Numbered from the stretch's first letter, positions 8,034 through 47,433 are shown. The stretch is DNA of 64,000 nucleotides from an uncultured Flavobacteriaceae bacterium (GCA_943789465.1 CALSUF010000002.1:631952-695951); one strand, 5' to 3'. Notes: a model not told the origin generated them from the sequence alone. Numbers and translations are program-made.

Positions 8034-8073
8034 TCCTCAAAATAGTTCGATTTTACTCCTCTTGACTCCACGG
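8034..8073 (+). repeat. Dispersed intergenic box, copy A (TCCTCAAAATAGTTCGATTTTACTCCTCTTGACTCCACGG), followed by the AT hairpin cctaaaataaa-t-tttattttagg (8082..8105)
   Basis: One of six same-orientation copies of a conserved ~40-nt motif in this window (consensus TCCTCAnCAAAATAGTTCGACTTCACTCCCyTTrGCTCCAC). Confidence 0.6.
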
Positions 8074-8298
8074 CATTATTCCCTAAAATAAATTTTATTT
8101 TAGGAAATATTTTTTAATTAAATTAATTTAAAATTCGGTAAATGATACGATATCTTAAAAATCTAATATTAAATAAAATTATACAAGTCGTAGCTCGAAT
8201 GACTTTTAATTCGAATAAAATTCCACTAAATTTGTAAGAATAAACATAATGGATATAAAGACAATTGTGTTTATCCATTCGTTCTCATCAATTAAAAA

Positions 8299-8910
8299 AT
8301 GAAAATAAGTCATGTAATATACAAGGTTGATAATTTAAAAAATGGATTCAAACACTTTGAAAGCCAGGGATTTGAAATTGAATACGGTTCAAAAAGAAAT
8401 GCACATAATGCCTTGATTTATTTTTCAGAAGGACCCTATATTGAAGTATTAGAAAATGTAAATATTCCACCCTATGCAAAACTATTTTTAAAGCTAATCG
8501 GCAAGCATAAAGTTATTGATAGATTGGAACTATGGAATAAGGAGAAGGAGGGTTTTATTGAATTATGTTTGGAGAATTATGATACCGACTTTAAAAAAGA
8601 AGAGGAAGTTTTAAAAAAGTATAAGCAAGGTTACTTTGTTACGAAGAGCAAAAGATTAGATCCATCAAATAGATTACTAAAATGGAAACTCCTTTTTCCA
8701 GAAGAACGGAGAATCCCATTTCTTATGACTTATTTTAATATTGACCCCAAACCAAAAAAAAATAATCATCCAAATGGCATAAAAAAAATTAAGAGCATTT
8801 CATATGGTACAAATGCAGGGTTCATTCCAATAGTTAACGAATTATGCGATGATAATATTCTTAATTTATTCATTGGTGATGGGGTTTCAAATTTAGAGTA
8901 TGAAAAATAA
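8299..8910 (+). CDS. VOC (glyoxalase/bleomycin-resistance/dioxygenase-like) family protein, tentative
   Basis: ORF track. N-terminus MKISHVIYKVDNLKNGFKHFESQGFEIEYG resembles the VOC beta-alpha-beta-beta-beta N-terminal motif (HV..V.Dl.....FY...LGFE). The assignment is weak. Confidence 0.45.
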   Translation: MKISHVIYKVDNLKNGFKHFESQGFEIEYGSKRNAHNALIYFSEGPYIEVLENVNIPPYAKLFLKLIGKHKVIDRLELWNKEKEGFIELCLENYDTDFKKEEEVLKKYKQGYFVTKSKRLDPSNRLLKWKLLFPEERRIPFLMTYFNIDPKPKKNNHPNGIKKIKSISYGTNAGFIPIVNELCDDNILNLFIGDGVSNLEYEK

Positions 8911-8993
8911 AAACTGATGAGAACAAAACCTATACGCAATACCCTTCGGGATACTGCGCATAGCCAGACCGTTGGATTCAAAATAATTCGAAA

Positions 8994-9036
8994 TCTTTCC
9001 AAAAATAGTTCGACTTCACTCCCCTTAGCTCCACGA
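8994..9036 (+). repeat. Dispersed intergenic box, copy B (TCTTTCCAAAAATAGTTCGACTTCACTCCCCTTAGCTCCACG)
   Basis: Matches the box consensus. It is followed about 35 nt later by a terminator hairpin with the conserved CCAAGCTTGCTTG loop. Confidence 0.6.
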
Positions 9037-9070
9037 TTAAGCGCAGTGCGACTGCGACTTAAAATTCAAA

Positions 9071-9105
9071 AAACTTACCAAGCTTGCTTGTGTAAGTTTT
9101 TTTTT
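9071..9105 (+). terminator. Intrinsic (bidirectional-type) terminator: A-run, stem cttac/gtaag, loop caagcttgcttgt, then T9
   Basis: aaaacttaccaagcttgcttgtgtaagttttttttt lies downstream of the 8299..8910 CDS. The same loop with a different, compensating stem occurs at 41261 and 62621. Confidence 0.6.
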
Positions 9106-9304
9106 AAGAGGGCTGATGTAAAAAAAAGTTGTCAGGACATTTACAAGAAGTGATTAACATGACAAAAAAAAAAGAAAAGAGATGATTTATTGAATTTATA
9201 ATTTTTATCATAACAATAAAAAAATTCAATATTACCCTTATAATTGTAATTGATAAAAAAACAAGCTTAAGCTAAATTATAAATAGTATTGTAATTAAAT
9301 ACCA

Positions 9305-10411
9305 ATGAAAAAACTATTTTCACTTGTAGCATTAATCATCGGATTTACAGTTAGTGCTCAAATAACTACCAGTAGCACAAATAATAGTGGACCCTCTGCA
9401 TCTGCGATTGGGCTGCAAACGACAGCAAGTGGAGTTGCTTCTACATCAATCGGGCGTCAGACATTAGCAAGTGGAGACTACTCCACTGCATTGGGTTATT
9501 TAACATCAGCATCTGGGGGTAGTTCTATCTCCATGGGACGTTCTACATCTGCAAGTGAATTATATGCAACCGCAATGGGACATGAGACAACAGCAGGTGG
9601 AAATTCTTCTACAGCAACAGGATATAAAACAACGGCAAGTGGAGCTGCCTCTACAGCAATGGGGCTAGAGACAACAGCAGGCGGCGATAATTCGATTGCT
9701 ATGGGTTATCTCACATCAGCATCTGGAGGTAGTTCTATAGCAATGGGACGTTCTACATCTGCGAGTGAGTTGTACGCAACCGCAATGGGACATGAGACAA
9801 CAGCAAGTGGAAATTCTTCAACAGCAACAGGATATCAAACAACAGCAAGTGGATCTGCCTCTACAGTAATGGGAAAAGGTACTATAGCTAGTGATTATGG
9901 TTCTCTTGTGATTGGTACATACAATTTAAGCGGTTCAACGGTTACTGTTGACGCAACACTACCCAATATTGGAAATACTGCTTTTGTGATCGGAAATGGC
10001 ACTAATGCTGTAAAATCTGATGCCTTTAAAGTAATGTACAATGGAAACGCTACTGTTGGTAATGACTTAACAGTAAGTGGTGATGTTGTGGTTTCATCAG
10101 ATGCAAGACTTAAAGCAAATATTGTATCTCTAGGTTCTACTCTATCAAGACTATTACTTATTGATGGGAAGCGTTACACAATGAAAAAAGACGGCAAACA
10201 AAAAATTGGCGTATTGGCTCAAGACATACAAAAAGTATTTCCAAAACTTGTTACAACTGATGACAAAGACATGTTAGCGGTAAACTATCAAGGACTTGTT
10301 CCTGTGCTAATTAATGCGCTTAAAGAACAACAATCAGAAATAGACACTTATAGAGAAGAAGTATCTGAATTAAAGAAAATGGTTAATCAACTTATTACCA
10401 AACAAAAATAA
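9305..10411 (+). CDS. Secreted tail-fiber-like protein: Ser/Thr/Gly-rich repeat region plus a C-terminal peptidase S74 (endosialidase/tail-spike intramolecular chaperone) domain
   Basis: Signal peptide MKKLFSLVALIIGFTVSAQ. About 14-residue repeats (T.ASG..STA.G). The C-terminus DARLKANIVSLGSTLSRLLLIDGKRYTMKK...GVLAQDIQKVFPKLVTTDDKDMLAVNYQGLVPVLINALKEQ matches the S74 chaperone-domain pattern (SD.RLK.NI..L...L..l..l.pv.Y.....G..AQ....fPelV........vdY..L.p.li.AiKEq), followed by a coiled-coil tail. Confidence 0.8.
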   Translation: MKKLFSLVALIIGFTVSAQITTSSTNNSGPSASAIGLQTTASGVASTSIGRQTLASGDYSTALGYLTSASGGSSISMGRSTSASELYATAMGHETTAGGNSSTATGYKTTASGAASTAMGLETTAGGDNSIAMGYLTSASGGSSIAMGRSTSASELYATAMGHETTASGNSSTATGYQTTASGSASTVMGKGTIASDYGSLVIGTYNLSGSTVTVDATLPNIGNTAFVIGNGTNAVKSDAFKVMYNGNATVGNDLTVSGDVVVSSDARLKANIVSLGSTLSRLLLIDGKRYTMKKDGKQKIGVLAQDIQKVFPKLVTTDDKDMLAVNYQGLVPVLINALKEQQSEIDTYREEVSELKKMVNQLITKQK

Positions 10412-10424
10412 CATCACAATAAAT

Positions 10425-11303
10425 ATGAAAAAATCACTTACACTTTTAGCATTAACTATGGCATGTAGTATGAATGCACAAATACAAATTTATCAAACAA
10501 ATATTAGCGGATCAACAACTTCTTCAGCAATTGGAAGTTATACAAAAGCAACTGCTACTGGTGCATTTGCATCAGGGAAAGACACAGAAGCAACTGGAGA
10601 GTATTCTCAAGCATTGGGATATAAAGCAAAAGCACATGGAAATAAGTCTTTTGCAATAGGAGATCTCACCACAGCAAACGGAGTTAACTCTACAGCTATG
10701 GGATATTGGACAGAAGCAAATGGAGATTATTCTACATCAACGGGAGAATTTTCAGATGCAAATGGAAAAACTTCTACAGCAATGGGATATGGTTCATATG
10801 CAAGTGATGCTTTTTCTTTGGTAATTGGTCATAACAATTTAAGTGGATCAACGGTAACCGGTAGTGCAACTGAATTTAATTCAGCAAATACTGCTTTTGT
10901 AATTGGAAATGGTAGTTGGCCTTGGGATAGATCAGATGCTTTTAAAGTAATGTCTAACGGAGATACTACAGTTAGTAATGACCTAACTGTAAATGGTGAT
11001 ATCGTTGTTTCTTCAGATGCACGACTTAAAGCAAATATTGTATCGCTAGGCTCTACGCTTGCCAAACTACTGCTAATTGATGGAAAGACCTACACAATGA
11101 AAAAAAACGGTAAACAAAAAATAGGCGTATTGGCTCAAGATATTCAAAAAGTATTTCCAGAACTAGTTACAACAGACGATAAAGACATGTTGGCGGTAAA
11201 TTATCAAGGGCTTGTACCCGTGCTTATTAATGCACTTAAAGAACAAGACGATAAGATTTCAAGATTAGAAAAATTAGTAGAAAAATTAATTTCTAATAAA
11301 TAA
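10425..11303 (+). CDS. Secreted tail-fiber-like protein with C-terminal peptidase S74 chaperone domain (paralog of 9305..10411)
   Basis: Signal peptide MKKSLTLLALTMACSMNAQ. The C-terminal 100 aa are nearly identical to the upstream paralog (DARLKANIVSLGSTLAKLLLIDGKTYTMKKNGKQKIGVLAQDIQKVFPELVTTDDKDMLAVNYQGLVPVLINALKEQ). There is a 13-nt gap to the upstream gene. Confidence 0.8.
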   Translation: MKKSLTLLALTMACSMNAQIQIYQTNISGSTTSSAIGSYTKATATGAFASGKDTEATGEYSQALGYKAKAHGNKSFAIGDLTTANGVNSTAMGYWTEANGDYSTSTGEFSDANGKTSTAMGYGSYASDAFSLVIGHNNLSGSTVTGSATEFNSANTAFVIGNGSWPWDRSDAFKVMSNGDTTVSNDLTVNGDIVVSSDARLKANIVSLGSTLAKLLLIDGKTYTMKKNGKQKIGVLAQDIQKVFPELVTTDDKDMLAVNYQGLVPVLINALKEQDDKISRLEKLVEKLISNK

Positions 11304-11309
11304 AAAACT

Positions 11310-12875: not shown

Positions 12876-12883
12876 TATTGAAT

Positions 12884-13087: not shown

Positions 13088-13121
13088 TAGTCAATAACTT
13101 AAAAAAAAATATGTTAAGTAA

Positions 13122-14129: not shown

Positions 14130-14142
14130 ACGATCTATTTAG

Positions 14143-18520: not shown

Positions 18521-19830
18521 ATTTAAGACTAATTATTTATTCACTTCTTCTAATTACGCATAGTGTTTCGGGGCAATCTAGATTACAAAAGGTCCTCGCT
18601 CATGACACCTCCAGTATTTATGTTTTTAATAAAGAAAATATAACTATTAAGAACTTTCGAAACTCAATTTTAGATACAATACACCTTAATCCTTCTGAGA
18701 ATATCGATTTTGAGGATTTAAAAATGGTTGTTTTAAAGGGTGTGCCTCATTTAGTTTCTAAAGAAGGCGGAATGGTATGGGAAGTAGTTAAAGATTCGCT
18801 CAAAAGAATAGATAATTCTTTCAACCATAAAAACACTTCTCAGTCAGATATTTTCGTTCGTAATGACACCATCTTTAAATTTGGTGGGTATGGATATTGG
18901 GGTGTAAGAAACTTTTTTACCTACTTTTCCAAGACCACTGCAGAATGGCAGTTTTATGGAATTAACCCTCAATCTTATTTACCTAAAGGTTTAAGTCATT
19001 TTAATGCCTCCTATCACAAGAACAGCTATTATATTTCAGGTGGTGTAACAATAGACGAGCATGATGGAACCAACGAACTTTTAAATACCAACGTTTGGAA
19101 ATTCGATTTTAATACAAAATTATGGAGTGATTTAGGAACATCAAAATTTGAGTCTTACGATGTTCATAATGTTGTTGATATTGGAAATGGGCGTCAGCTC
19201 GTTTTTAGGCGCTTAAACAAAACCGATTCTTATGTTATTCGTATTATAGATTATGTTGAAAATTCCATAGAGGAGTATGACAACTCCAATCCAATCATGT
19301 CTATTGATGGAGGATTTTTCGCGCGTGATTCACTATACACTATCAAAAGTGGAAAGTTAAGTGCTGTGAATTTAAAAGATTTCACAAATGAGTCCACAGA
19401 TCAAACCTCTTTGTATTTAGATGCTAGTGTGTTATTTGAACGCCTCACACTGTTTATTGTCAGTGTTCTAATTTTGTTGTTTGGAGGCTTAGTGTTGTTA
19501 TATTGTAAAAACAGGAAACGCCCAAGACTCACTGATTCAGGTTTTTATCATAACTACATACATTATCCTCTCTCAAATCAAGAGCAAAAAGTTTTAGGCA
19601 TGTTATTGTACAGTAAAAACATTAATTCTAAATTATTATTAGAAGAGTTGAACGATTCATCATCGAGTACTTCGTATAACAATCTAAAAAAACTAGAAGT
19701 TATTGATTCTTTGAATGAAAAAATATCAAAAGTTTTTGGAACCAAAACATTTATACGATCAAAAATGAGTACAAAAGATGAGAATATACTTATCTATTTT
19801 ACCAACTATAGAAAAGAGTTTGTGCTATGA
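18517..19830 (+). CDS. Membrane-anchored regulator: Kelch-like beta-propeller extracytoplasmic domain, single TM and C-terminal LuxR-type HTH
   Basis: Signal peptide. Kelch-like motifs ([34 protein letters not shown]). TM segment [22 protein letters not shown]-terminus [27 protein letters not shown] resembles a LuxR/GerE HTH. Confidence 0.55.
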
Positions 19831-20288
19831 TCTGTTACGATGATTATTGGTGGGTGTTAAAAGTGAAAACAGGACATGAACTAAAGGCTGTTTCTGATTT
19901 GGAAAGCTTTGGGGTCCAGTCTTACACTCCTATAATCGAGGTGGTTCGTAATTGGAGCGATCGTAAGAGGAAAATTCAAACACCACTTATGCCTCGTTAT
20001 GTATTTGTAAAATTGACCCCCAATGAAGAACGCATCGTATTTGGCTGCAAAAGTGTGCTGGGGTATATGCATATTCATGGATTGAGAGCAAAGGTTTGGC
20101 CTAAAGAAATTAAAAAGTTACAGCAGTATTGCAACAACATTCATTACGCTTCGCAAACTGATCGTGGAACACATATTAAAGCTCCCGTATTGGGCGTTGA
20201 TGCAGAAGTTATTAATGTCAAAAACGGAGTTTGTTATTTAGTTTCGGATTGTGGTCGTTATAAGATACAATTCAAACTGGCAAGCTAG
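19827..20288 (+). CDS. upxY: UpxY-family transcription antiterminator (NusG paralog) heading a polysaccharide locus
   Basis: NGN-domain motif YWWVLKVKTGHELKAVSDLESFGVQSYTPIIEVV...RKIQTPLMPRYVFVKL (compare NusG WY.l.t.sg.E.kv...L). It sits immediately upstream of flippase, glycosyltransferase, Wza and Wzc genes. Confidence 0.7.
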   Translation: MICYDDYWWVLKVKTGHELKAVSDLESFGVQSYTPIIEVVRNWSDRKRKIQTPLMPRYVFVKLTPNEERIVFGCKSVLGYMHIHGLRAKVWPKEIKKLQQYCNNIHYASQTDRGTHIKAPVLGVDAEVINVKNGVCYLVSDCGRYKIQFKLAS

Positions 20289-29835: not shown

Positions 29836-29863
29836 TCACTTTTTTAAAGTTGTTATTTCCAAA

Positions 29864-29905
29864 TCCTCCCACAAAATAGTTCGACTTCACTCCCCTAAGC
29901 TCCAC
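29864..29905 (+). repeat. Dispersed intergenic box, copy C, followed by the hairpin attcccaagaataat-ttatt-attatccttgggaat (29906..29945)
   Basis: TCCTCCCACAAAATAGTTCGACTTCACTCCCCTAAGCTCCAC, located between convergent genes. Confidence 0.6.
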
Positions 29906-29928
29906 TTTTTATTCCCAAGAATAATTTA

Positions 29929-31345: not shown

Positions 31346-31346
31346 T

Positions 31347-32654
31347 TTATTCAGTTAGTTTTTTACCACAATTTGAGCAAAACTTTGTACCCGCAGTGTA
31401 TTCATTGCCACATTCACAGATATTTGGAAGAACATATTCACAGGCATGACATATTTTTGCATTTGCATCTAAATCAGTATCACATTTTGGACAAGGGTTA
31501 TAACCATCGCCACAATTTGGACAAAATTTATATTTAGGAGAAAAACCTGTAGCACATTTATCGCAGTTTACTGTTTTTTCAGTAATTTGTTTTGGTAAGG
31601 TTGTAGAATTGGCCTGTGCTGTACCACAGTTTTTACAAAAAGGGCTTGTAGATTGCAGAGCAGTGTTGCACTTACTACAAGGCTTTGAAGGATTGGCCAA
31701 ATTATCAGTATTCATCTGGTTTTGAACCATCCCTCCTACTTGATTTGCCAAAGGCATGGCCATTCCAAGTCCTACAACGGTACCTAAAATACCAGAGCCT
31801 CCAGAGCCGTCGCCACCTTCAGAGCCACCAATATTGGTAGCAGCTGCTTCAGTTGTATCAAAAGTTCGTTCAACTTTATATACATTTAACTGCTCGGCTC
31901 TACGTTTGAGTCGTAGTTTTTCCTCCATATCTTCAGACATAATACGGTGGTAATCCTCTACAATTTTTTTTACGCGCTCATCTTCGTCAACTACAGATAT
32001 TCCTTCAACACTAAAAAAACTAATTTCTAAACCATATTTAGACATAGCAAATTTTACAGCTGGCTGAATACTATTGCTAAGCTCTTTGACCATATATTCA
32101 AGTTCTAAAGGACCTAAGTCTAAATCTTTAGATAGTTTCCAAATTGCGTTTTTGGTTGATTCGGTAATAATTCCTCTAAATAATTTTTGTAATTCTAATT
32201 GATTGAATAGGCTAGATACCCCTACAATTTCAGTTAAAAATTTTCTAGAGTCTACTATCTTTACTGAATAACTTCCTCTACAGGTAATGGGAATTGGAAC
32301 TTTAAAATTTGGTTCAACGATATTAAAAGGCATCAAGCCCCACTTAGCATCCTGTGAAAGCGCCTTGTTTACGTAAAAAACCTCGGCAGTGAAAGGAGTG
32401 TCCCCTCCAAAAGCAAGTCCGATTACATCAGCTAGAAAAGGGATGTTATAGCTTGTAAGTGTGTGGGTTCCAGCTCCAAAAACATCTAATAACTTACCGC
32501 CTTTAAACATGAAGGCATCTTGGCTTTCATTGACCACCAATTGGGTGCCAATTCTTAGTTGATTTTCACGTTTTTGATTTCCATTTTTTGGAGACCATTT
32601 CCAAACAAGCTCATCATTTGGTCCTTCATATTTTAATACATCAATAATAGCCAT
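31347..32654 (-). CDS. SPFH/band-7 domain protein with C-terminal multi zinc-ribbon region (COG4260 / B. subtilis YdjI-like, 'virion core protein' family)
   Basis: N-terminus MAIIDVLKYEGPNDELVWKWSP... is typical of YdjI-like SPFH proteins. Gly-rich linker. At least 5 CxxC pairs in the last 110 aa (CSKCNT...CKNCG, CDKC...CPNCG, CPKC...CHAC, CECG...CSNCG). 1-nt gap to the channel gene (TAAAATG). Confidence 0.7.
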   Translation of the reverse strand: MAIIDVLKYEGPNDELVWKWSPKNGNQKRENQLRIGTQLVVNESQDAFMFKGGKLLDVFGAGTHTLTSYNIPFLADVIGLAFGGDTPFTAEVFYVNKALSQDAKWGLMPFNIVEPNFKVPIPITCRGSYSVKIVDSRKFLTEIVGVSSLFNQLELQKLFRGIITESTKNAIWKLSKDLDLGPLELEYMVKELSNSIQPAVKFAMSKYGLEISFFSVEGISVVDEDERVKKIVEDYHRIMSEDMEEKLRLKRRAEQLNVYKVERTFDTTEAAATNIGGSEGGDGSGGSGILGTVVGLGMAMPLANQVGGMVQNQMNTDNLANPSKPCSKCNTALQSTSPFCKNCGTAQANSTTLPKQITEKTVNCDKCATGFSPKYKFCPNCGDGYNPCPKCDTDLDANAKICHACEYVLPNICECGNEYTAGTKFCSNCGKKLTE

Positions 32655-32658
32655 ACTG

Positions 32659-34584
32659 TTACGATTTTGGTATTGGGATTTTCATACTCCCAGATTTTGT
32701 TATTATGTGTATCTCTTTCAAGTTATCCATACTAACTCTTGTACGAAATCTATAAACCAATTTTTGTGCATCAATTTGTTTAGATTTGGGTTGGATCGGA
32801 TTTATAGAATTTATGTCATTTATAGTAACAAAAGGTTCCAAATTAATGAGCTCTTTTGGTACAGAAAACGTGATATCATTATACACATACCCTTTGTCAA
32901 CAGAGATTTCTGATTTTTCTAACGCAGAAATCAATTCGTTTGGTAAATCTGTTTTTAATTTACTATACTCCTCAGATCGATCTTTTGCTGTTTGAAATTT
33001 AAATCCCTCCTCATCGATCCACGAAACAATATCGTCTGTGATGATGACACCTCTTAGTTTTACAATATCTTCAGGAACTATTTTTTTGTTTCCTAACCAT
33101 TCATAATCTATCTCAAGTGGTTCTTTATAGTCCTTTTCTGAGTACGGTGGAAGACTATTTAATGCATCTGGCACTTTAAAAACTTGATAATTATCTTTGT
33201 AACTGTCAGTAAAATGAATACATAAGAACAAACGAACGTTTTCTATAGTCCGGTTGGAATTGTTAGTCATTTTAACACGTAAAGAATTCTTAGGGTCAAT
33301 TATAGACCCTTCTGAAACCTCAATATCAACAAAAGGACGCTCCACAAACATCTCAGAAAAAACAGTTGGCAAATATTTATTGCAAAAATTTAAATCACCA
33401 GGCAAATAATCTTGAACCACTTGGTTGCCACGTCTAAAAAAGTGACGTTTAATTTCTTCGATTGCTTTTGTGTTGTTCCCAAGATTTCTATGCATGATAG
33501 CTTTTTGAAAGTTTGGACTGAAATTACCAAAACCTTCCATGGTACTCATGTAGGTTTTAACGATGAATTCAGACTCAACAGATCTAAAAATAGAACCTCT
33601 GATTTTAAAAATATTCATTAAATCCAGAAGTGCTTCACTTTGTTTTGGATACAGAATAGAGGCTTCATCAAATAATGTGAATGCGTTTTCTATTTCACCT
33701 TTTTGATATTCTAAAATACCCTTCAAAACAAAAGCAGGTGCTGTAGATGAAGGGAATTTTTCAAAATAAGATGCTAAAATGGTTTCTATTTCTTCAAGTT
33801 TAGTGACTTTTTGTTCGTCATTAGAAATGGTATTATTATTCAATGAAAGCAGGGCAAAACCTTTTAATAATATAGACTCACGATCATTGGGAGATAATTC
33901 TAAGGCAGTATCAGCAAACTCAATCACTTTTTGGTAATTAGAATTGTAAAGTGATATGTAGGCCTGATCTCTTTGAGCACAGAGCTTGTCCCATTGGGTC
34001 ATATATTTAAGAAATATAGGGCTTGAAAACTTAACATATTCCAAATAAGTTTCCTTGACTTTTTTTATCTTTTTTAAAACTTCAATTTCTCTTTCATAAC
34101 GGTCTCCAGCTATACTCATCGCATCGGCACCTGCTTTTGCAAGGTTTAAACTACCTCTAATTATATCTCCTTCATAAATTTGAACCCCTGAATTTACTGC
34201 AACAGCAGTAACACTTCCAAATTCTGAAAATGCAGTCCATACAGATTCACCAACTTCCTTTTCTGCCTCTGCATCATAAAGATTTTCTAACACTGGTAAT
34301 AATTTCTGATAACAACTAATAACATCAGGCGCTACACCAGTCAAATCTTGTTTGTAAAGATATTCTGTATATTCTTGAACGTCTTTTACATTTTTTATCG
34401 CTTCATCTAAAGTGAATATAACCTTAATTGTAGCTTCAAGGTTTAAAGAGTTCTTATTGGTTGTTTTAGAGTTTTCTAATTGTTCATCAAGCTGAGTAAA
34501 TTGTGAATTAGGGGATTTAGTCTCTGAACAGGCTGTAAACAATATGACTAAAAAAAGAATATTAAATTTTTTCATGATTTTCAT
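32659..34584 (-). CDS. Lipoprotein with TPR-like helical repeats (first gene of the SPFH/channel operon)
   Basis: Lipobox LVILFTAC. Helical repeat-rich sequence. 4-nt gap to the downstream SPFH gene. Confidence 0.65.
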   Translation of the reverse strand: MKIMKKFNILFLVILFTACSETKSPNSQFTQLDEQLENSKTTNKNSLNLEATIKVIFTLDEAIKNVKDVQEYTEYLYKQDLTGVAPDVISCYQKLLPVLENLYDAEAEKEVGESVWTAFSEFGSVTAVAVNSGVQIYEGDIIRGSLNLAKAGADAMSIAGDRYEREIEVLKKIKKVKETYLEYVKFSSPIFLKYMTQWDKLCAQRDQAYISLYNSNYQKVIEFADTALELSPNDRESILLKGFALLSLNNNTISNDEQKVTKLEEIETILASYFEKFPSSTAPAFVLKGILEYQKGEIENAFTLFDEASILYPKQSEALLDLMNIFKIRGSIFRSVESEFIVKTYMSTMEGFGNFSPNFQKAIMHRNLGNNTKAIEEIKRHFFRRGNQVVQDYLPGDLNFCNKYLPTVFSEMFVERPFVDIEVSEGSIIDPKNSLRVKMTNNSNRTIENVRLFLCIHFTDSYKDNYQVFKVPDALNSLPPYSEKDYKEPLEIDYEWLGNKKIVPEDIVKLRGVIITDDIVSWIDEEGFKFQTAKDRSEEYSKLKTDLPNELISALEKSEISVDKGYVYNDITFSVPKELINLEPFVTINDINSINPIQPKSKQIDAQKLVYRFRTRVSMDNLKEIHIITKSGSMKIPIPKS

Positions 34585-34625
34585 ATTTATTATTCTATAA
34601 ATTTAAAGCATAATTCAATAAATAT

Positions 34626-35903
34626 ATGTACATATTTTGTACATTTAATTTTATGATTAAAACTTTAAAAACAATTACTCAAAAAAAATTAGGATTTAAA
34701 ATTGAAGACTATAACAGTTCTAGAAGGTTAAGTGAAATTATTTATACAGAAACTGGAATCGAAATCAGTTATAATACGCTGAGACGATTTTTTGGAATTG
34801 TAAAACCTGTTAAACCTAGTAATTACACTCTAAATGCTTTGGCGGTGTTTAATGGTTTTAAGAGTTATACCGATTTTGTGATGAACTTCCACTTGAAAAA
34901 TAGATGGAAGGAAGAGTTTCAAATAGTTTCTCTAATGGATGATCGAAAAAAAAAAATATTAGAATACATCCAAACTAATTTACACTCAAAAAGGGAATTC
35001 GTTCTAAAATTAACGCAAATAATTCGAGAGTTAATGTTGATTAAGGACTATAATTTTTTATTGCAGATATTTAGTTTGGATCAAATGAATTTTAATTATT
35101 TCAATTTTGATGATGTTGCATACATTGGTAACTGCACAGGTCCACTTCTAAAAACATTTGATTTAAAATCTACTGGGACTCATAGGCTTATACTCAATAA
35201 TAACTTTTTAGACATAGTAATAACCATCTTTGTAGACTATAAAAACTTAAATAATTATTATGGAGAATACCTAAGATATATCAACGCCAACTGTGAAAAA
35301 GAAAATATTAGCCAGTTTTGTAAAGGGGTCTTAAATTTAAATATGTACCTCAATAACGAAAATAAAAATCAAATGTTTAAACTAAAATTAAGTTCGAATT
35401 TTCACCCCATACTTAAAAGTAGGGTAATTGCTCAGGAGTTATTTTTTGAGTCTAACAACTTAATTGAAATTCTGAACAACTACGATAAACAGTCACAGGA
35501 GAAGGCCAGAATTAACATAGATTATTATTTTGAAATCATTACTACAGCAATTGTTACAAAAAAATTTGAGGTTATGGCATGGATTTTTAAAAAGTTTGAA
35601 TTCAAAACAAAATATGATAAGTTTTATAAATTTGAACATTATGAACACTTTGGGTTGATGGCTATGGTTTTGTTTAAATACCGTCAAGATGATAAGAACT
35701 TAAACTTATGGATTAAATCCATTTCATTTGATAATTTCTCTAGACCGTATGAAACTTTTATGCTACAATTCGTTTACATTCTCAAATACCACAACTCAAA
35801 AGCAAATAAGGTGTTTTATAAAACTAAGTATATGGAATCAGCCAAATATCTCTACCCAAAGTTTTTTACCGAAGACTACTTGATTAATTATTTTAACGTA
35901 TGA
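34626..35903 (+). CDS. Hypothetical protein with N-terminal AraC-like HTH fragment
   Basis: LSEIIYTETGIEISYNTLRRFFGI resembles one AraC HTH repeat. The rest is unknown. Confidence 0.45.
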   Translation: MYIFCTFNFMIKTLKTITQKKLGFKIEDYNSSRRLSEIIYTETGIEISYNTLRRFFGIVKPVKPSNYTLNALAVFNGFKSYTDFVMNFHLKNRWKEEFQIVSLMDDRKKKILEYIQTNLHSKREFVLKLTQIIRELMLIKDYNFLLQIFSLDQMNFNYFNFDDVAYIGNCTGPLLKTFDLKSTGTHRLILNNNFLDIVITIFVDYKNLNNYYGEYLRYINANCEKENISQFCKGVLNLNMYLNNENKNQMFKLKLSSNFHPILKSRVIAQELFFESNNLIEILNNYDKQSQEKARINIDYYFEIITTAIVTKKFEVMAWIFKKFEFKTKYDKFYKFEHYEHFGLMAMVLFKYRQDDKNLNLWIKSISFDNFSRPYETFMLQFVYILKYHNSKANKVFYKTKYMESAKYLYPKFFTEDYLINYFNV

Positions 35904-36727: not shown

Positions 36728-36757
36728 TCTAAATATTAAACATCAATTTTAGACAAA

Positions 36758-36797
36758 TCCTCACTAAAATAGTCCGATTTTACTCCCTTTGGGTCCA
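36758..36797 (+). repeat. Dispersed intergenic box, copy D (TCCTCACTAAAATAGTCCGATTTTACTCCCTTTGGGTCCAAA)
   Basis: Matches the box consensus. Located between convergent genes. Confidence 0.55.
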
Positions 36798-36843
36798 AAT
36801 AATATCTTAAGCAAATTATGTGTTACCTCTTAAAGTATTGTAA

Positions 36844-38775: not shown

Positions 38776-38813
38776 TGTGGTATGTTTTATTAAATTATGA
38801 TTATATATTTTTT

Positions 38814-40355: not shown

Positions 40356-40356
40356 C

Positions 40357-41055: not shown

Positions 41056-41179
41056 GGTTAAAGGTTAAATTGGAATAGCAATATAGTTTAAAAAAATATA
41101 AAAACCGATACATAGTTGATACAAAACTATTAATGCAATATTAATTACATTTTATTTGAAAGAATTGAACCTCTTTAAA

Positions 41180-41220
41180 TCCTCAACAAAATAGTTCGAC
41201 TTCACTCCCTTTGGCTCCAC
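41180..41220 (+). repeat. Dispersed intergenic box, copy E (consensus-identical: TCCTCAACAAAATAGTTCGACTTCACTCCCTTTGGCTCCAC)
   Basis: Followed by the small hairpin cctg-atattcaa-cagg and then the conserved-loop terminator at 41261. Confidence 0.6.
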
Positions 41221-41260
41221 TTTAAAGCGACCTGATATTCAACAGGATTAAAAACAAAAA

Positions 41261-41292
41261 ATCTGCCAAGCTTGCTTGAACAGATTTTTTAT
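41261..41292. terminator. Bidirectional intrinsic terminator: A-run, stem atctg/cagat, loop ccaagcttgcttgaa, T-run
   Basis: aaaaacaaaaaatctgccaagcttgcttgaacagattttttatttt. Positioned to terminate the minus-strand 41435..46483 gene. Confidence 0.55.
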
Positions 41293-41434
41293 TTTAAGAC
41301 TGCTGGTCTGTAAGAACAGTGCCAGGGCATTTCCTAAGCGAGAGGCTAGAGAAAAACCAACAGTTATTCTTGGTGTTTGCACAATAAAAAACCCCTACAT
41401 TTCTGTAGGGGTTGTATTTTAAGGTATGTCTTGT

Positions 41435-44400
41435 TTAATTCTTTATAATTCTTTGTGTAGTGAGTTTAGCACCATCAGAAAGTTGTAGGATGTAGACTCC
41501 TTTTTCTAGTTGGCTAATATCTATACTATTTGTAATAGACTTATTCATTAGTTGCTTTCCAAGTATATCATATACAACTACTTTTAATTGAGTGTAATTA
41601 CCGTCTATGTATACTATATCTGAAGTAGGATTTGGATAAACAGAAAGCCCTAATTCAAATGCATGATCTCCCACACTTAATGCACTACAAGCTGCTTCAT
41701 CTTCAACAAAAGTAGCTGCAGGATCAATAGTTGTCCAATTTGTAGAACTATAGTCAGCATTGTCCACAAAAATACAGCTCAAATTAGGATTGTTTGTAGC
41801 AATAAAATAAGTAATGCTTGCATTATTTTCGTTTCTAATATCTAATGTTTCTAATTGATTATTATCAACACTCAAAATTTCCAAATTAGTGTTACTACTA
41901 AGATCTAAAGTTGTTAAATTATTTGAATTACAAGTCAAAATCTCTAAGGCAGGATTACTACTTACAATTAGTTCTGTTAATTGGTTATCATAACTAGCCA
42001 AAATCTCTAAGGCAGTATTACTACTCACAATTAGCTCTGTTAATTCATTAGAATTACAAATCAACGTAATCAAGTTTGCATTACTACTGACATCTAAACT
42101 TCTTAATCCATTGTTATTACATTCCAAATACTCCAAAGCAGTATTTTGACTCACATCTAAACTTGTTAATTGATTATTTTCGCATCTCAAATAGTCCAAA
42201 GCCGTAAATCCTTCTATTCCTGTCAAATCTGAAATATATAAACCTCCTAAATTTATACTTGTTATGCCATTAATATTTGCAGTTAATACTTGACCATCAA
42301 TTTCTCCCGAGTCTAGATTATAATCTATTAGGGCTTGTTCAAAATTGGCATCTGGAATGGAGGTGATTGAAGGACAAGTACCCCAAACTGGTGTATTACT
42401 CTCAGCCAATGGTGAATCAACACTAAAATTACTTGGCTCTGAAGTAATATCTGTAACACACCAATTTGATATATCTTGATTGAAAGCAGATGCTTGATAA
42501 AACATAGCTTCCATATTAGTAACACTACTCACATCCCATTCACTTATATCTTGATTGAAAGAAAATGCTCCAGCAAACATTTCTAACATTTCAGTCACAT
42601 TACTCACACCCCAAGCATTCAATGGTTGATTGAAAGATGATGCCCCAAAAAACATAAAAGACATATTAATAACGCTGCTCACATCCCATTCACTTATATC
42701 TTGATTGAAAGAAAATGCTCCAGCAAACATACTAACCATATTAGTCACACTACTTGTATCCCATTCACTTATATCTTGATTGAAAGATGATGCTTGATAA
42801 AACATACCACTCATATCAGTCACACTACTTGTATTCCAATCATTTAGTGGTTGATTGAAAACAGTTGCTCTAGCAAACATACCACTCATATCAGTCACAC
42901 TACTTGTATTCCAATCATTTAGTGGTTGATTGAAAGATGATGCATTATAAAACATATAACTCATATTAGTCACACTACTCACATCCCAAGAACTGATATC
43001 TTGATTGAAAGCAGTTGCTGATTCAAACAAATAATTCATATTAGTCACATTACCTGTATCCCAAGCACTTATATCTCCATTAAAAGTGTTTTTATCTTCA
43101 AATGCATCACTCATATCCGTTACTTGGCTCACGTCCCAATCTGGCATTAAACCGTATTCACTATCTGAACATAGACCATCTTCTGGATTTGTACTTAAAC
43201 AAGTGTTTATAGCAGTATAAAAATTATCATCTGTAATTGGGGTTAGATTGCTTGGACAAGTACCCCAAACTGGTGTATTACTCTCAGCCAATGGTGAATC
43301 AATACTAAAATTACTTGGCTCTGAAGTAATATTTGAAACACACCAATTGGATATATCTTGATTGAAAGCTGATGCTTCTAAAAACATAGAATCCATATTA
43401 GTAACACTACTCACATCCCAAGAACTTATATCTTGATTGAAAGCAGATGCAGAATAAAACATTTCATACATATTAATCACATTAGCCACATCCCAAGAAC
43501 CTATATCTTGATTGAATTCTGTTGCAGAATCAAACATACTATCCATTCTACTAACACTACTTACATCCCAAGAACTTATGTCTTGATTGAAAGATGATGC
43601 TTCTTCAAACATATAACTCATATCAGTAACACTACTTGTATTCCAATCATTTAGTGGTTGATTGAAATCGGATGCAAGAGCAAACATACCAACCATATTA
43701 GTCACACTACTTGTAACCCAATCATTCAATGGTTGATTGAAAGATGATGCATAAAAAAACATATAACTCATTTCAGTAACACTACTTGTATTCCAAGAAC
43801 TTATGTCTTGATTGAATTCTGTTGCAGAATAAAACATATAACTCATATCAGTAACACTACTTGTATTCCAATCATTCAATGGTTGATTGAAAGATGATGC
43901 ATAAAAAAACATATAACTCATTTCAGTAACACTACTTGTATTCCAAGAACTTATGTCTTGATTGAATTCTGTTGCAGAATAAAACATATAACTCATATCA
44001 GTAACACTACTCACATCCCAAGCACCAATAGGTTGATTGAAAGCCGATGCCCCTGCAAACATATAACTCATATTAGTCACACTACTCACATTCCAAGAAC
44101 TTATATCTTGATTTAATTCTGTTGCAGAATCAAACATACCATACATAGTTGTAACACTAATTGTATTCCAAGAACTTATATCTTGATTGAAAGATGATGC
44201 TTGATAAAACATATCTAACATATCAATCACATTACTCACATTCCAATTAGAAATATCTTCATTAAAATTTCGTTTTCCATCAAATAAAGAACTCATATCT
44301 GTAATTAAAGAAACATCCCAAGTATTCATTGCTCCGTAAGTTCCTGAGCCTTGTTCGGATGGTACTGGACTATCTGCAGTAATCGTCCCATCAATCCAAC

Positions 44401-46483
44401 CGTTCACGGCTGATTGTAATTCAGCTTTTGTTCTTGGTTGAAACATATTAAGAGCAACATCCGAAAGTCTCCAAACATCATTACTATCTCGTGTTATGGT
44501 AGGAGTTGGATTGTATCCTAAATCTAGAGCAGCCGCTGCACCACTAAACATATTGGTGACATTAACCGTTTCACTTTTTAATTGCCAGGTCCAAAGGTTT
44601 TGATTAAATAATACTGCATTATAAAACATACTGTCCATTGAATCTACATTACTAACATCCCAAGAACCAATATCTTGATTGAAAGATGATGCTTCTTCAA
44701 ACATAAAACCCATATTAGTCACACTACTTGTATCCCATTCACTTATGTCTTGATTGAAAGATGATGCTTTATAAAACATAGTTAACATATTAGTAACACT
44801 ACTTGTATCCCAAGCATTTAGTGGTTGATTGAAAGATGATGCTTCATAAAACATAAAACTCATAGTAGTCACACTACTTGTACCCCAAGAACTTATGTCT
44901 TGATTGAAAGATGATGCATCATAAAACATACCCTCCATATCAGTCACATTACTCACATCCCAAGCATTCAATGGTTGATTGAAAGATGATGCCCCAAAAA
45001 ACATACCACGCATAGTAGTCACACTACTTGTATTCCAATAATTCAATGGTTGATTGAAAGATGATGCATCCGAAAACATTCGATACATATTAGCAACATT
45101 ACTCACATTCCAATTAGAAATATCTTCATTAAAATTTTGTTTACCATCAAATAAATAACTCATATCTGTAATTAAAGAAACATCCCAAGTATTCATTGCT
45201 CCGTAAGTTCCTGAGCCTTGTTCGGATGGTACTGAACTATCTGCAGTAATTGTGCCATCAATCCAACCGTTCACGGCTGATTGTAATTCAGCTTTTGTTC
45301 TTGGTTGAAACATATTAAGAGCAACATCCGAAAGTCTCCAAATTTCATTACTATATTGTGTTATGGAAGGAGTTGTATTGTATCCTAAAGCTCGAGCAGC
45401 CGTTGCTAAATAAAACATATCCGTAACACTCACCTCACCACTTTTTAATTGCCAGGTCCAAAGGTTTTGATTAAATAATACTGCATTACTAAACATATAA
45501 CCCATATCAGTCACACTACTCACATTCCAAGCACTAATATCTTGATTGAAAGATGATGCATGTGCAAACATAGCATACATATCAGTCACACTACTCACAT
45601 TCCAAGTATTCAATGGTTGATTGAAAGATGATGCATCTGCAAACATACCATACATAGTTGTAACACTACTCACATTCCAATTAGAAATATCTTCATTAAA
45701 ATTTTGTTTTTCCTCAAATAAAGAACTCATATCTGTAATTAAAGAAACATCCCAAGTATTCATTGCTCCATAAGTTCCTGAGCCTTGTTGGGATGGTACT
45801 GGACTATCTGCAGTAATCGTCCCATCAATCCAACCGTTCACGGCTGATTGTAATTCAGCTTTTGTTGTTGGTTGAAACATATTAAGAGCAACATCCGAAA
45901 GTCTCCAAATTCCATTACTATCTTGTGTTATGGAAGGAGTTGTATTGTATCCTAACGCTAGAGCAGCCGTTGCACCATTAAACATATTGGTGACCCTAAC
46001 CGTTTCACTTTTTAATTGCCAGTTCCAAAGGTTTTTATTAAATAATACTGCATTCTCAAACAAATTTATCATGTTAGTCACATTACTCACATCCCAAGAA
46101 CTTATGTCTTGATTGAATTCTGTTGCAGAATCAAACATACCAACCATATTAGTCACACTACTTGTATTCCAATCATTCAATGGTTGATTGAAAGATGATG
46201 CATAAACAAACATATAACTCATATCAGTAACACTACTTGTATTCCATTCACTTATATCTGCATTGAAAGCGGTTTTTTCTAAAAATGCATTGGACATATC
46301 TGTTACTTGGCTTACATCCCAATCTGGCATTGCACCATATTCACTATCTGAACACATTCCATCCTCTGGATTGCTAGTTAAACAAGTATTTATTGCAGTT
46401 TGAAAATTAGCATCTGTAATGGGGGTGTTTTGACTAAAGCAAAAAGAAGTGGCTAGTAATAAAACAAATTGTAACTTTAACAT
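41435..46483 (-). CDS. Giant T9SS-secreted surface protein (1682 aa): about 35 DUF285 (BspA/Mycoplasma-lipoprotein-type) repeats, C-terminal leucine-rich repeats and a Por sorting domain
   Basis: Signal peptide [18 protein letters not shown]. Reiterated approximately 26-aa DUF285 unit ([40 protein letters not shown]). LRR block [36 protein letters not shown].... C-terminus [34 protein letters not shown]...[21 protein letters not shown]. Internal large duplications (three copies of [57 protein letters not shown]). Confidence 0.85.
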
Positions 46484-46520
46484 AGGTTATTTTTGAAAAT
46501 TAATTTTCAAAAATAACCTA
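46481..46520. promoter_or_regulatory. Perfect 40-bp AT-rich palindrome ataGGTTATTTTTGAAAATTAATTTTCAAAAATAACCtat, overlapping the start codon of the DUF285 gene and just downstream of the crp/fnr gene
   Basis: The sequence equals its own reverse complement over 40 nt. There is no loop, so it is a cruciform or dimeric-protein operator candidate, or a hairpin that sequesters the start codon. Confidence 0.4.
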
Positions 46521-46561
46521 TTGGAAATCCACACACATTGATCCGGGTTAAGAAATGACCC

Positions 46562-47140
46562 TTATTTTTTAGAAATTCTATTTTTTATCCTACTAAAGCC
46601 TTCAGGACTCATTCCTAAATAGGAAGCAATCATATATTGAGGCACCCTTTGAAAAAATTTAGGTCTAGTATTTATTAATTCCAAATAACGCTCCTCGGGA
46701 GAATTAAGAAAGAATGATTCGTATTTTCCTGAAACTTCCATGTACAAATTCTCAACTATTTTTCTGCTAAGTACTTGAACTTTAGGAAGTTTTTCATAAA
46801 GCATTAAAAGATCATTTCGGTGTATAAGTGTAACTGAGCAGTCTTCCAAGGCTTGAATATAAAATTTAGACTTATTCTCTAAAAGAAAACATGGGTAGTT
46901 AGAAATAAATTCATTGGGGAAAAAAAACCCTCGTATATGCTCAACACCACCAATTAAGTAATAGAAATTAAAAAAACCTTTGTCTACAAATCCAACATGG
47001 TTACAATAGTCGTTTTCTTTTAATAAGTAGTCCCCTTTTTTGTACTTTTTTGTAACAAGAGATGCTGATAAGACCGACCATTCTTCTTCTGTTAAATTTA
47101 CAAAATTAGTTAATAAGGCTTTAATGTTAACATTCATCAT
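46562..47140 (-). CDS. Crp/Fnr-family transcriptional regulator (cNMP-binding domain + C-terminal HTH)
   Basis: Beta-roll cNMP-like region (KKGDYLLKENDYCNHVGFVDKGFF). C-terminal HTH RVPQYMIASYLGMSPEGFSRIKNR. Confidence 0.75.
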   Translation of the reverse strand: MMNVNIKALLTNFVNLTEEEWSVLSASLVTKKYKKGDYLLKENDYCNHVGFVDKGFFNFYYLIGGVEHIRGFFFPNEFISNYPCFLLENKSKFYIQALEDCSVTLIHRNDLLMLYEKLPKVQVLSRKIVENLYMEVSGKYESFFLNSPEERYLELINTRPKFFQRVPQYMIASYLGMSPEGFSRIKNRISKK

Positions 47141-47392
47141 TTTAATTAGTCAATTGGTTTTTTGCAAATGTAAGTCTAATGATTGAATTCTAAGACAAAA
47201 AGCAAGGGCTGTTTTTGGGTAAACCCATTACAGCATACCAATTATAAAGTCTTGGTTTTTTGGAGTCATTATTATAATTAGCCCAAGCACCTTTGGTTAG
47301 GCTTTCCCGCTGAGTTGGATCAATAACTTGTGGAATGGTGGTACCATCTCTTTGAGAAACCATCTTGGCGTTTTCTGTTTAATTTTTCCAAA

Positions 47393-47433
47393 TCCTTACC
47401 AAAATGGTTCGACTTTTCTCCCTTTGGCTCCAC
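47393..47433 (+). repeat. Dispersed intergenic box, copy F (TCCTTACCAAAATGGTTCGACTTTTCTCCCTTTGGCTCCAC), followed by the cccaagaataat...atccttgg hairpin as in copy C
   Basis: Matches the box consensus. Its trailing hairpin/T-run is shared with copy C. Confidence 0.6.

Follow-up and report, generated by a model that had tools for sequence, protein, structure and literature searches.

Within a 64,000-nt stretch of DNA from an uncultured Flavobacteriaceae bacterium, analysed here in full and called the window, a short intergenic box recurs in one orientation, and the question that it raises is what kind of element this is: an RNA gene, a small transposon, or something that serves the genes around it. 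A sequence-only reading of the window had described six such boxes (A to F) and considered an sRNA or MITE-like family. We propose, with a probability of about one in two, that they belong to a modular intergenic element composed of a minus-strand micro-ORF core and a box-strand terminator, which forms the seams between gene cassettes that are exchanged by homologous recombination.

The box family and its terminator hairpins

The boxes are true copies of a repeat that is widespread in marine Flavobacteriaceae. All six lie where the sequence-only reading had placed them, on the plus strand, outside every ORF of at least 100 aa and adjoining surface-protein genes, and its view that the family is multi-copy far above chance is borne out by a 21-nt core, AAAATAGTTCGACTTCACTCC, with six matches in the window at up to 3 mismatches against 0 expected from shuffles. 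The full 41-nt version of the proposed consensus, allowed the same 3 mismatches, matches copy E alone, and the figure of over 85% identity has to be replaced by 66-89% in pairwise comparison of the window copies over a 44-nt box. A decayed seventh copy (about 57713-57757) is also on the plus strand, so that all 7 window copies point in the same direction; intact boxes stand at the orthologous site in three other stretches (L074, L071 and L114). That the motif forms no tRNA-like fold was also correct: ARAGORN, run on the window, found no tRNA and no match of the box to a tRNA or tmRNA 3' end, and T-arm pairing around GTTCGA is absent from the sequence. The wider pattern search that had been recommended found the box in more than 115 genome stretches among the matches listed, nearly all of them from Flavobacteriaceae, and in no phage contig or plasmid among those matches; the sequences collected hold 188 copies at E<1e-3. 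Many matches stand at contig ends and look like assembly breaks at a repeat. The box is conserved across genera, an invariant core of 21-24 bp being common to all copies and the same AT-rich hairpin often being shared too, and orthologous sites across genera are occupied or carry a decayed copy rather than being cleanly empty. The parts of the window are as follows, the micro-ORFs being the minus-strand reading frames described in the next section.

8003-8071, minus: micro-ORF A, GTG start, 22 aa, MESRGVKSNYFEEDLKELNNLR
8028-8071, plus: box A, 2 mismatches to the core; bounds the mobile glyoxalase cassette on the left
8077-8109, plus: AT-rich hairpin of type 1, then a T-run; predicted plus-strand terminator
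8930-8963, minus: terminator-like hairpin just past the stop of micro-ORF B
8978-9034, minus: micro-ORF B, GTG start, 18 aa, MELRGVKSNYFWKDFELF
8991-9034, plus: box B, bounds the glyoxalase cassette on the right; here the 20.8-kb B..C locus has its left joint
9037-9102, plus: two hairpins after box B (9037-9062 and 9068-9102)
29862-29905, plus: box C, in which 1 nt is inserted; here the B..C locus has its right joint
29909-29944, plus: AT-rich hairpin of type 2, overlapping the stop codon of the minus-strand gene 29929-30552
36736-36798, minus: micro-ORF D, TTG start, 20 aa, MDPKGVKSDYFSEDLSKIDV
36755-36798, plus: box D, core match with 3 mismatches
41152-41220, minus: micro-ORF E, GTG start, 22 aa, MEPKGVKSNYFVEDLKRFNSFK
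41177-41220, plus: box E, the canonical copy
41231-41290, plus: small hairpin (41231-41246) and terminator hairpin (41256-41290) after box E
41297-41382, minus: 'module 2', a conserved structured element upstream of the 41256-41290 terminator on the minus strand
47390-47433, plus: box F, degenerating
47437-47472, plus: AT-rich hairpin of type 2, then a T-run, after box F
57713-57757, plus: seventh, decayed box, about 40 nt past a 55-aa CxxC...CxxC gene (57507-57674)

A predicted intrinsic terminator hairpin directly follows the box on the box strand, and its polarity is clear from the counts: of 99 strong hairpins, 76 start no more than 10 nt from the box, and 61 have a T-tract after them on the box strand, against only 9 with an A-tract before them. 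The stem covaries and the box itself is unpaired (RNAalifold). In the window, the stem-loop that had been claimed for every copy stands directly after boxes A, B, C, E and F; that of copy D is the weakest, with a folding energy of only -6.7 kcal/mol for the entire 70 nt downstream. Copies C and F have one hairpin type in common, as had been noticed, and B and E do share the CCAAGCTTGCTTG hairpin, although the motif taken there for a conserved loop is the palindromic top of the stem. The type 1 hairpin family, as at 8077-8109, is almost always attached to a box and likewise shows stem covariation. The hairpin at 9068-9102 has a conserved AAGCTT apex, with an A-run before and a T-run after it, and could for that reason terminate in both directions; the one at 41256-41290 has T-runs on both strands. 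Of 119 copies, 64 have a same-strand gene that ends upstream of the box (median distance 74 nt), and the upstream neighbour points away in 46%. We infer for the module the role of a boundary element that stops incoming transcription on the box strand. Module 2, whose structure is supported by compensatory pairs and which matches Rfam at sub-threshold level only, is a separate sRNA-like unit; it and the micro-ORF have a 5' GUGGAG...AAGGGA motif in common.

Coding-type constraint on the minus strand

Read on the minus strand, the box spells GTG/ATG/TTG-Glu-x-Lys/Arg-Gly-Val-Lys-Ser-Asn-Tyr/Phe-Phe-x-x-Asp-Leu, which would give a peptide of consensus M-E-x-[KR]-G-V-K-S-N-[YF]-F-x-x-D-[LF] followed by a short unconstrained tail. 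In 170 of 176 copies this frame opens with GTG, the alternatives being ATG and TTG. When the 32 unique copies that lie outside the scan pattern are compared over codons 5-11, the changes divide into 40 synonymous and 17 non-synonymous ones, with 0 stops; since the copies are related, these are not independent events. The other frames fare much worse in this test or are interrupted by a conserved TAG. Val, Gly and Ser are encoded with all four third bases, and replacements are conservative (K/R, Y/F, V/L). Transitions and transversions stand at 27:4 at two-fold sites versus 9:14 at four-fold sites (Fisher p = 3.5e-4), and the micro-ORF frame contains 4 stops versus 16.5 +/- 2.7 expected, a value matched by 0 of 2000 shuffles, with 45-151 stops in the remaining five frames. 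Orthologous copies taken alone give the same substitution pattern. Mostly synonymous change, a transition bias that matches codon degeneracy and the avoidance of stops together point to a micro-ORF of about 21 codons. By the pattern of its substitutions, the conserved box behaves as a protein-coding sequence on the opposite strand and is under coding-type constraint; the micro-ORF is probably translated.

The constraint is confined to the first 15 codons. From codon 16 onward, differences number 495, 693 and 442 by codon position, with no excess at the third. Tails orthologous to that of micro-ORF D are found in L019 and L028, and the 'ELF' tail family of micro-ORF B is seen again at unrelated loci. 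The peptides are hydrophilic (median GRAVY -0.57, with a hydrophobic 15-residue window in 1 of 137), and in the databases they are represented by three tiny read-through ORFs only. Copies C and F deviate: the insertion in box C shifts the micro-ORF frame past codon 11, and in box F two changes, V->E and Y->H, are non-conservative, with a +1 indel in sister strains. The synonymous sites of TCG, AAC, TAT and GAG are nearly invariant; these codons should be rare in AT-rich genomes, and their near-frozen state suggests an additional constraint at the nucleotide level. Expression is harder to account for: the hairpin stands immediately before the micro-ORF start codon, a terminator after the micro-ORF on its own strand is inconsistent (26 of 174 copies), and the sole promoter consensus scored, TAnnTTTG with or without TTG, occurs at no fixed distance and without positional enrichment on either strand.

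Boxes as recombination joints

The boxes are recombination joints, seams at which blocks of surface and defence genes are exchanged, acquired or lost between strains. A check for variation between strains, also suggested by the sequence-only reading, gave a direct example: L124 is a strain that lacks the 20.8-kb B..C locus and in which window positions 7864-9034 are joined to 29854-35781 at 99.7% identity, with the crossover within the core. In L023 and L073 the left flank of F is joined to the right flank of C, and the sole difference between L123 and the window is a conversion patch within the core. At least 5 contexts contain a 1-kb glyoxalase-like cassette at 98-100% identity, a 203-aa protein being identical in at least 5, and similarity to the window ends where boxes A and B have their outer edges (in L120, 8028-9035 at 99%). 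Both flanks are shared between genomes in 1 of 177 pairs at the box, compared with 31-80% at controls 1-2.5 kb away. Other repeated modules also stand beside the box and may contribute part of the one-sided flank similarity.

Breakpoints fall within the box or the hairpin at the junctions mapped, which number only about 8. Their positions are spread over core and hairpin: the left junctions have the hairpin in common and differ over the whole box, and the right junctions switch within the core. Such variation favours homologous recombination over a site-specific enzyme, and junction alignments revealed no target-site duplications. We found no integrase, transposase or recombinase domain in the window ORFs and, by clustering and representative sequences, no integrase, transposase or recombinase among the recurrent neighbour protein families. 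Exchange appears to proceed by general homologous recombination or gene conversion with no dedicated enzyme. Repeats of 45 bp that match imperfectly are short substrates for RecA. The region from D to F is invariant in 10 strains, which implies that not every joint is active. Orientation is uniform throughout, with a single direction in 46 of 46 multi-copy loci and, among 45 pairs of successive copies separated by more than 500 nt, 0 with opposed orientation.

In the explanation that we prefer, marine Flavobacteriaceae would possess a modular intergenic element with the box as its conserved core; read on the plus strand, the box would present an unstructured C-rich stretch running into an intrinsic terminator hairpin. 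Such modules would lie between genes, co-oriented across tens of kilobases, and would form the seams of cassettes in hypervariable regions with genes for surface proteins, polysaccharides and defence. Since copies share the core and often the hairpin, recombination between them could join any left flank to any right flank, and since the repeats are direct, exchange would delete, insert (Campbell-type) or replace the intervening cassettes; selection against inversions would also maintain co-orientation.

Competing explanations and related systems

The functional product might be a plus-strand RNA, with the minus-strand codon pattern incidental or a relic. This would make the box an unstructured C/U-rich segment of a 3'-UTR or sRNA, with three CUCC motifs just upstream of the terminator, and we consider it doubtful, as we do the role it would imply as a protein-binding or seed region or a Rho-loading site. 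It would account for the polarity of the terminators (61 versus 9), the upstream same-strand gene ends seen in 64 of 119 copies (median distance 74 nt), the unpaired and G-poor box, the synonymous sites frozen at the nucleotide level and the failure of promoter and terminator searches to find minus-strand expression signals. However, the minus frame bears three independent coding signatures, the middle CUCC is often disrupted (ACGCC, ACCCC) just where the Gly codon stays synonymous, and the RNA would have no promoter in the 46% of copies whose upstream neighbour points away. Nor is there covariation in the box, which RNAalifold predicts to be entirely unpaired, or an Rfam family, with no match at the gathering score and chance-level matches only at E<=10. 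What survives of the sRNA proposed from sequence is the terminator in most copies; fixed-distance promoter, box structure and Rfam match were not found, which leaves that proposal weak. A type I toxin-antitoxin-like pair, in which the micro-ORF would be the toxin and a plus-strand transcript ending at the hairpin its cis-antisense antitoxin, is very unlikely. Such systems typically have far fewer copies per region than are present here, the peptides are hydrophilic (median GRAVY -0.57; 1 of 137 with a hydrophobic window), the micro-ORF tail is unconstrained and a promoter was found for neither RNA, even though a micro-ORF on one strand faces a terminator for the fully overlapping opposite strand in a multicopy intergenic family. 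There is precedent in the E. coli LDR and QUAD/SIB intergenic repeats, which proved to be type I toxin-antitoxin loci (Kawano 2002, for LDR, and Rudd 1999, both cited in PMC4147584) and which likewise have an intergenic box holding a tiny ORF with an overlapping transcript on the other strand. Unlike these, the copies studied here encode a hydrophilic peptide of which the N-terminal 15 residues alone are constrained, yielded no promoters and act as recombination seams.

Of the explanations that invoke mobility, a target for a dedicated recombinase encoded elsewhere, integron-like and with its attachment site in the micro-ORF, is improbable, although much of the pattern resembles it: co-oriented sites conserved across genera bound cassettes, copies of the same 1-kb cassette, 98-100% identical, stand in at least 5 contexts and a 20.8-kb segment is precisely present or absent. 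The small ORF-11 of attI1 even provides a precedent for a micro-ORF in a recombination site. Integron attC sites, however, are folded imperfect palindromes with RYYYAAC/GTTRRRY cores, whereas the box lacks dyad symmetry and an attC fold, its adjacent hairpin excludes the box, and GTTCGAC departs from GTTRRRY. The crossover point varies, no integrase is encoded in the window or by recurrent neighbours, and coding-type degeneracy is not predicted for a pure DNA site. Integron cassette arrays, CALINs included, share with the boxes short co-oriented sites and cassettes that occur in varied contexts and differ in presence between strains, yet the boxes have no nearby integrase, attC-type palindrome or fixed crossover, and their segments run from 1 to 21 kb and comprise multi-gene loci in either gene orientation. 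A MITE-like non-autonomous transposon would be short, multicopy and intergenic and would break assemblies, all of which applies, and in copy A the left end of the box pairs with the far hairpin arm (17 nt, 76% complementary). Over 151 copies, however, box-end complementarity is no better than in shuffled controls, terminal inverted repeats do not exceed chance and the hairpin alone is self-complementary. The target-site duplications that this reading entails are missing at the mapped junctions, orientation is strictly uniform, copies occupy the same sites in different genera and degenerate where they stand, the constraint is of coding type and no transposase was found nearby. We regard the MITE reading, which is hardly tenable, as largely refuted by the missing inverted repeats and duplications, the uniform orientation and the lack of clean empty sites.

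Two further systems in other bacteria resemble the element that we favour in part. The tycheposon islands of Prochlorococcus carry repeated partial-tRNA attachment sites in tandem island arrays, and there too direct short repeats separate cargo modules in hypervariable islands of marine bacteria; the box differs in that it is not tRNA-derived, has no associated integrase and occurs at many loci instead of being concentrated at a single attachment site. NIME/dRS3 of Neisseria and BIME/REP of enterobacteria are dispersed modular intergenic repeats near surface-protein genes or gene ends, in which a few motifs occur in varied order, hairpins affect transcript ends and copies serve as recombination substrates. 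Being dispersed, intergenic, mosaic and recombinogenic, the box element looks like an intergenic mosaic repeat of the BIME/NIME kind, a likeness of function for which we claim no homology. It has no sequence relationship to those repeats and belongs to another phylum, its core is not palindromic, one strand is under coding constraint and orientation is strictly uniform, and its copies form cassette seams, with near-identical cassettes in several contexts.

Box copies and their distribution

The six repeat copies reported by the sequence-only reading, here boxes A to F of ~45 nt, were all recovered at their positions and on the plus strand, and its intergenic placement held for 6/6, which lie outside ORFs of at least 100 aa. 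A seventh, decayed box lies on the same strand.

8028-8071 (+), box A
8991-9034 (+), box B
29862-29905 (+), box C
36755-36798 (+), box D
41177-41220 (+), box E
47390-47433 (+), box F
57713-57757 (+), seventh box, decayed

The 21-nt core, AAAATAGTTCGACTTCACTCC, gives six matches at no more than three mismatches, with none expected by chance. The 41-nt consensus first proposed proved too strict, fitting copy E only at up to three mismatches, and the identity put at over 85% comes to 66-89% pairwise over 44 nt. Of the hairpins said to follow each copy, one does directly adjoin every box, but that of copy D is weak. The hairpin common to C and F was confirmed and is of an AT-rich type, and the one attributed to B and E is indeed shared by them, but its 'conserved loop' is actually the palindromic top of the stem. 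ARAGORN finds no tRNA in the window, on which a tRNA or tRNA-fragment origin of the box was rejected, and no known Rfam family matches it at gathering score. Upstream of the decayed seventh box is a gene for a 55-aa CxxC...CxxC small protein (57507-57674, +), with no convincing Pfam match; it is conserved across genera (in the box-bearing stretches L074, L071, L114, L055 and L004), and some genera have an intact box behind it, the window, L055 and L004 a decayed one.

The GC content of the window is 26-43% across 2-kb windows, and many of its encoded proteins carry a type IX secretion C-terminal domain. Boxes sit in a surface-oriented variable region that comprises an Ig-like adhesin, YadA-head/Peptidase_S74 proteins, a polysaccharide locus with a NusG-like gene, collagen-like proteins and a 1682-aa DUF285 protein; an integrase or transposase domain was found in no window ORF. 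The adhesin gene (2990-7528, -) contains 249-nt tandem repeats and the DUF285 gene (41435-46483, -) many internal repeats of ~75/225 nt, and both are broken up or length-variable in the sister strains L123, L126, L131 and L133.

A scan of one-genome-per-species contigs with a degenerate 24-nt pattern, the kind of search proposed earlier, extended the family to more than 115 stretches among the matches listed, nearly all of these from marine Flavobacteriaceae (Polaribacter, Formosa, Winogradskyella, Ulvibacter, Lacinutrix and many MAGs), and a profile search of the collected sequence gave 188 copies at E<1e-3. Phage and plasmid origins were dropped, with 0 matches in 2.9 million viral contigs and 0 in plasmids. 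Carriers include a cultured strain, Winogradskyella sp. KYW1333 (loci L107 and L114), and the complete chromosomes OX044355.1 and OX044364.1, with at least one copy each. Many matches lie at contig ends, as assemblies are expected to break at a repeat. Copies are intergenic in 147/148 cases, and all four combinations of flanking-gene orientation are present (33, 27, 24 and 17 copies). Neighbouring gene families are diverse, which speaks against a tie to one particular gene or enzyme; the commonest neighbour is an uncharacterised 435-aa protein with no Pfam match, found at 12 loci.

Coding constraint on one strand and termination on the other

Read on the minus strand, the box takes the form GTG GAG nnn ARR GGA GTN AAR TCG AAC TAT TTT nnn nnn GAT TTR, translating as M-E-x-K/R-G-V-K-S-N-Y-F-x-x-D-L at the start of a predicted micro-ORF of ~21 codons. 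Four lines of evidence from the aligned copies indicate that translation of this frame takes place or did so until recently. In a substitution test on 32 unique copies unmatched by the scan pattern, which therefore does not bias the counts, codons 5-11 have changed synonymously 40 times, non-synonymously 17 times and to a stop 0 times; since box copies are related, these counts are not independent. One other frame is rich in 'synonymous' changes, namely the plus frame with the same third positions, where a conserved TAG and 11 stop-related changes speak against coding; in the remaining two plus frames synonymous change is almost nil. Two-fold sites carry 27 transitions and 4 transversions, against 9 and 14 at four-fold sites (Gly, Val, Ser), where all four bases are present, a pattern that tracks codon degeneracy (Fisher p = 3.5e-4). 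At freely varying codons 4 stops were observed versus 16.5 +/- 2.7 in column shuffles (0/2000 as low), and the other five frames contain 45-151. Codon 1 is GTG in 170/176 copies, the alternatives being ATG and TTG; amino-acid replacements are conservative (K/R, Y/F, V/L), and the coding-type pattern recurs in a set of orthologous copies that lie behind one conserved gene.

The predicted peptides (median length 21 aa) are hydrophilic, without any membrane-like stretch. A reading of the micro-ORF as the N-terminal part of some larger protein, for instance a transposase or an island's target gene, was rejected, as no larger motif-bearing protein was found; among 5.8 billion proteins, a word-indexed search picked up only three ORFs of 49-61 aa with the motif, and none of the Pfam and NCBIfam models match the peptide. 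After codon 15 the tail carries no coding signal; a beta-clamp-like DLELF C-terminus was seen in an 'ELF' tail family and is not general. The limitation of constraint to the first 15 codons makes it conceivable that the role lies in a nascent-peptide effect or in a short peptide motif at the N-terminus. Promoters show no positional enrichment on either strand, and a sigma-70 scan remained at background level, so that an own promoter of this type was dropped. Nor is there a consistent terminator after the micro-ORF on its own strand, one being present after ~15% of copies. Directly past the stop of micro-ORF B, a terminator-like hairpin (8930-8963, -) would shield the adjacent glyoxalase-like gene from antisense read-through.

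The same 45 nt appear to carry more than a reading frame. Synonymous third positions are nearly invariant in the TCG, AAC, TAT and GAG codons (e.g. 41187-41200, 41215-41217), and G/C-ending codons at such frozen sites are expected to be rare in AT-rich genomes, which points to a second, nucleotide-level constraint. A likeness of GTGAAGTCG-AAC to the 3' region of 16S rRNA was considered and dropped, because Bacteroidetes 16S presumably reads GCTAAGTCGTAAC at the corresponding position.

Structure prediction for the box as plus-strand RNA leaves it wholly unpaired, and covariation is confined to the downstream hairpin, which starts no more than 10 nt from the box in 76/99 strong hairpins. T-tracts follow on the box strand in 61 of these 99 and A-tracts precede in only 9, so the hairpin is best read as an intrinsic terminator acting on box-strand transcription. 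G-U pairs were uninformative as a guide to its RNA strand (70 vs 70), and both strands are equal in stability. One AT-rich hairpin family, almost absent away from boxes, occurs on about one third of copies; the remainder have unrelated GC-rich terminators. On its 5' side the box carries AAATCCTCCCCAAAATA, which is similar to the AT-rich hairpin's left arm and hence can partly pair with the right arm (8028-8044 vs 8096-8112), although over all copies this pairing is not significant; the hairpin may have derived from a duplicated, inverted piece of the box.

Exchange of cassettes at the boxes

The 203-aa glyoxalase-like protein encoded between boxes A and B is sequence-identical in at least five neighbourhoods, and locus L120 matches window positions 8028-9035 at 99%, a span bounded exactly by the outer edges of boxes A and B. 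L124 consists of 7864-9034 fused to 29854-35781 at 99.7% identity, without the 20.8-kb B..C locus and with the switch inside the core. The left flank of F is joined to the right flank of C in L023 and L073, L081 retains both ends only of the B..C segment, and L123 combines the window flanks at 99.6% with a core bearing a two-base conversion patch. Box C is an end point of metagenome contigs, and the D-to-F region is identical in 10/10 strains sampled. In cross-species pairs sharing one flank of a box, the other flank was also shared in 1/177, against 31-80% at control points 1-2.5 kb away, a contrast to which other repeated modules beside the box may contribute.

At 9305-11303 and 19827-20288 lie two YadA-head plus Peptidase_S74 (intramolecular chaperone) proteins and a NusG/UpxY-like gene; these genes, within the 20.8-kb locus, are present or absent between strains. 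In L120 (genes 1-5695) and L125, the glyoxalase cassette adjoins a DUF6361 / PLD / DEAD-helicase cluster and a GIY-YIG gene, blocks that look like defence cassettes at the same seams. A FISUMP-like gene fragment (…RLYNWYAV…; 47190-47363, -) lies directly against micro-ORF F, which gives the impression that the 5' end of the gene was exchanged for a joint with a box, and in L073 fragment and box are repeated ~7.2 kb apart.

Orientation is uniform in 46/46 loci with at least two copies, of 45 successive pairs separated by over 500 nt 0 are opposed, and the seven window copies share one orientation. Among the matches listed, same-contig copies are concordant up to 64 kb, the sole discordant pair being 180 kb apart. 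GC skew on the box strand is negative in 79/116 loci and the micro-ORF strand carries 54% of coding bases, which weakly suggests that the micro-ORF may read in the direction of replication.

We propose that the module would join a one-strand terminator, the start of a micro-ORF on the opposite strand and an invariant core of 21-24 bp that serves as portable homology. Exchange between direct repeats would then delete, insert or replace the intervening cassettes; inverted copies would give rise to inversions and be removed by selection, consistent with the uniform orientation. In its full form, to which we assign a probability of roughly one in five, this tentative reading holds that marine Flavobacteriaceae exchange cassettes genome-wide without an integrase by means of a portable joint of translated micro-ORF and one-way terminator, that the joint works in part through its conserved nascent peptide of 15 residues or through the translation process itself (e.g. 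as a boundary/insulator signal or recombination cue), and that each replichore has a single joint orientation. Hypervariable islands with genes for surface polysaccharides, for adhesins and for defence systems shape both the contacts of these bacteria with phages and grazers and their strain diversification, and the traffic of cassettes into and out of such islands has so far been mostly unexplained. The joint offers a concrete mechanism for this turnover, represents a widespread, unannotated predicted micro-ORF family with codon-level constraint, accounts for many assembly breaks and, being 45 bp long, conserved and easily searched, marks island seams in genomes and metagenomes.

Rival readings and a structured element beside box E

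A dedicated recombinase acting on the box is disfavoured: the crossover falls in the core at some of the ~8 junctions mapped and in the shared hairpin at others, which argues against a fixed-site enzyme and for homologous recombination or gene conversion, and the box has no attC-like fold. The MITE-like family of the sequence-only reading fails as well, with terminal inverted repeats at chance level and target duplications, orientation and site history all against it. The box may instead be a plus-strand RNA element, which would account for both the terminator and the frozen bases but would leave three coding signatures unexplained. The layout also resembles a type I toxin-antitoxin arrangement, which has precedent in E. 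coli, in its LDR and intergenic repeats (reference list of PMC4147584), but the predicted peptide is not hydrophobic.

Among known systems, the box comes closest in behaviour to the BIME/NIME intergenic mosaic repeats, whereas its genome architecture is most like that of integron cassette arrays. It belongs to neither, since its core is palindrome-free and coding-constrained and its polarity strict, and our searches of the literature by sequence and by topic yielded no description of box or peptide.

Between the terminator of the DUF285 gene and micro-ORF E lies a conserved structured element of ~130 nt (41255-41385, -), with homologues in L041, L063, L081, L021, L035, L057 and L066. Its nested hairpin shows compensatory changes of GGG/CCC <-> GAG/CUC, its 5' GUGGAG pairs downstream, and it closes with the AAGCTT-apex hairpin and a T-run behind it. 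The sole Rfam match around copy E and this element is Clostridiales-1, at 24.7 bits against a threshold of 48, and by its predicted fold the element looks like an undescribed sRNA. A decayed version of it follows box B.
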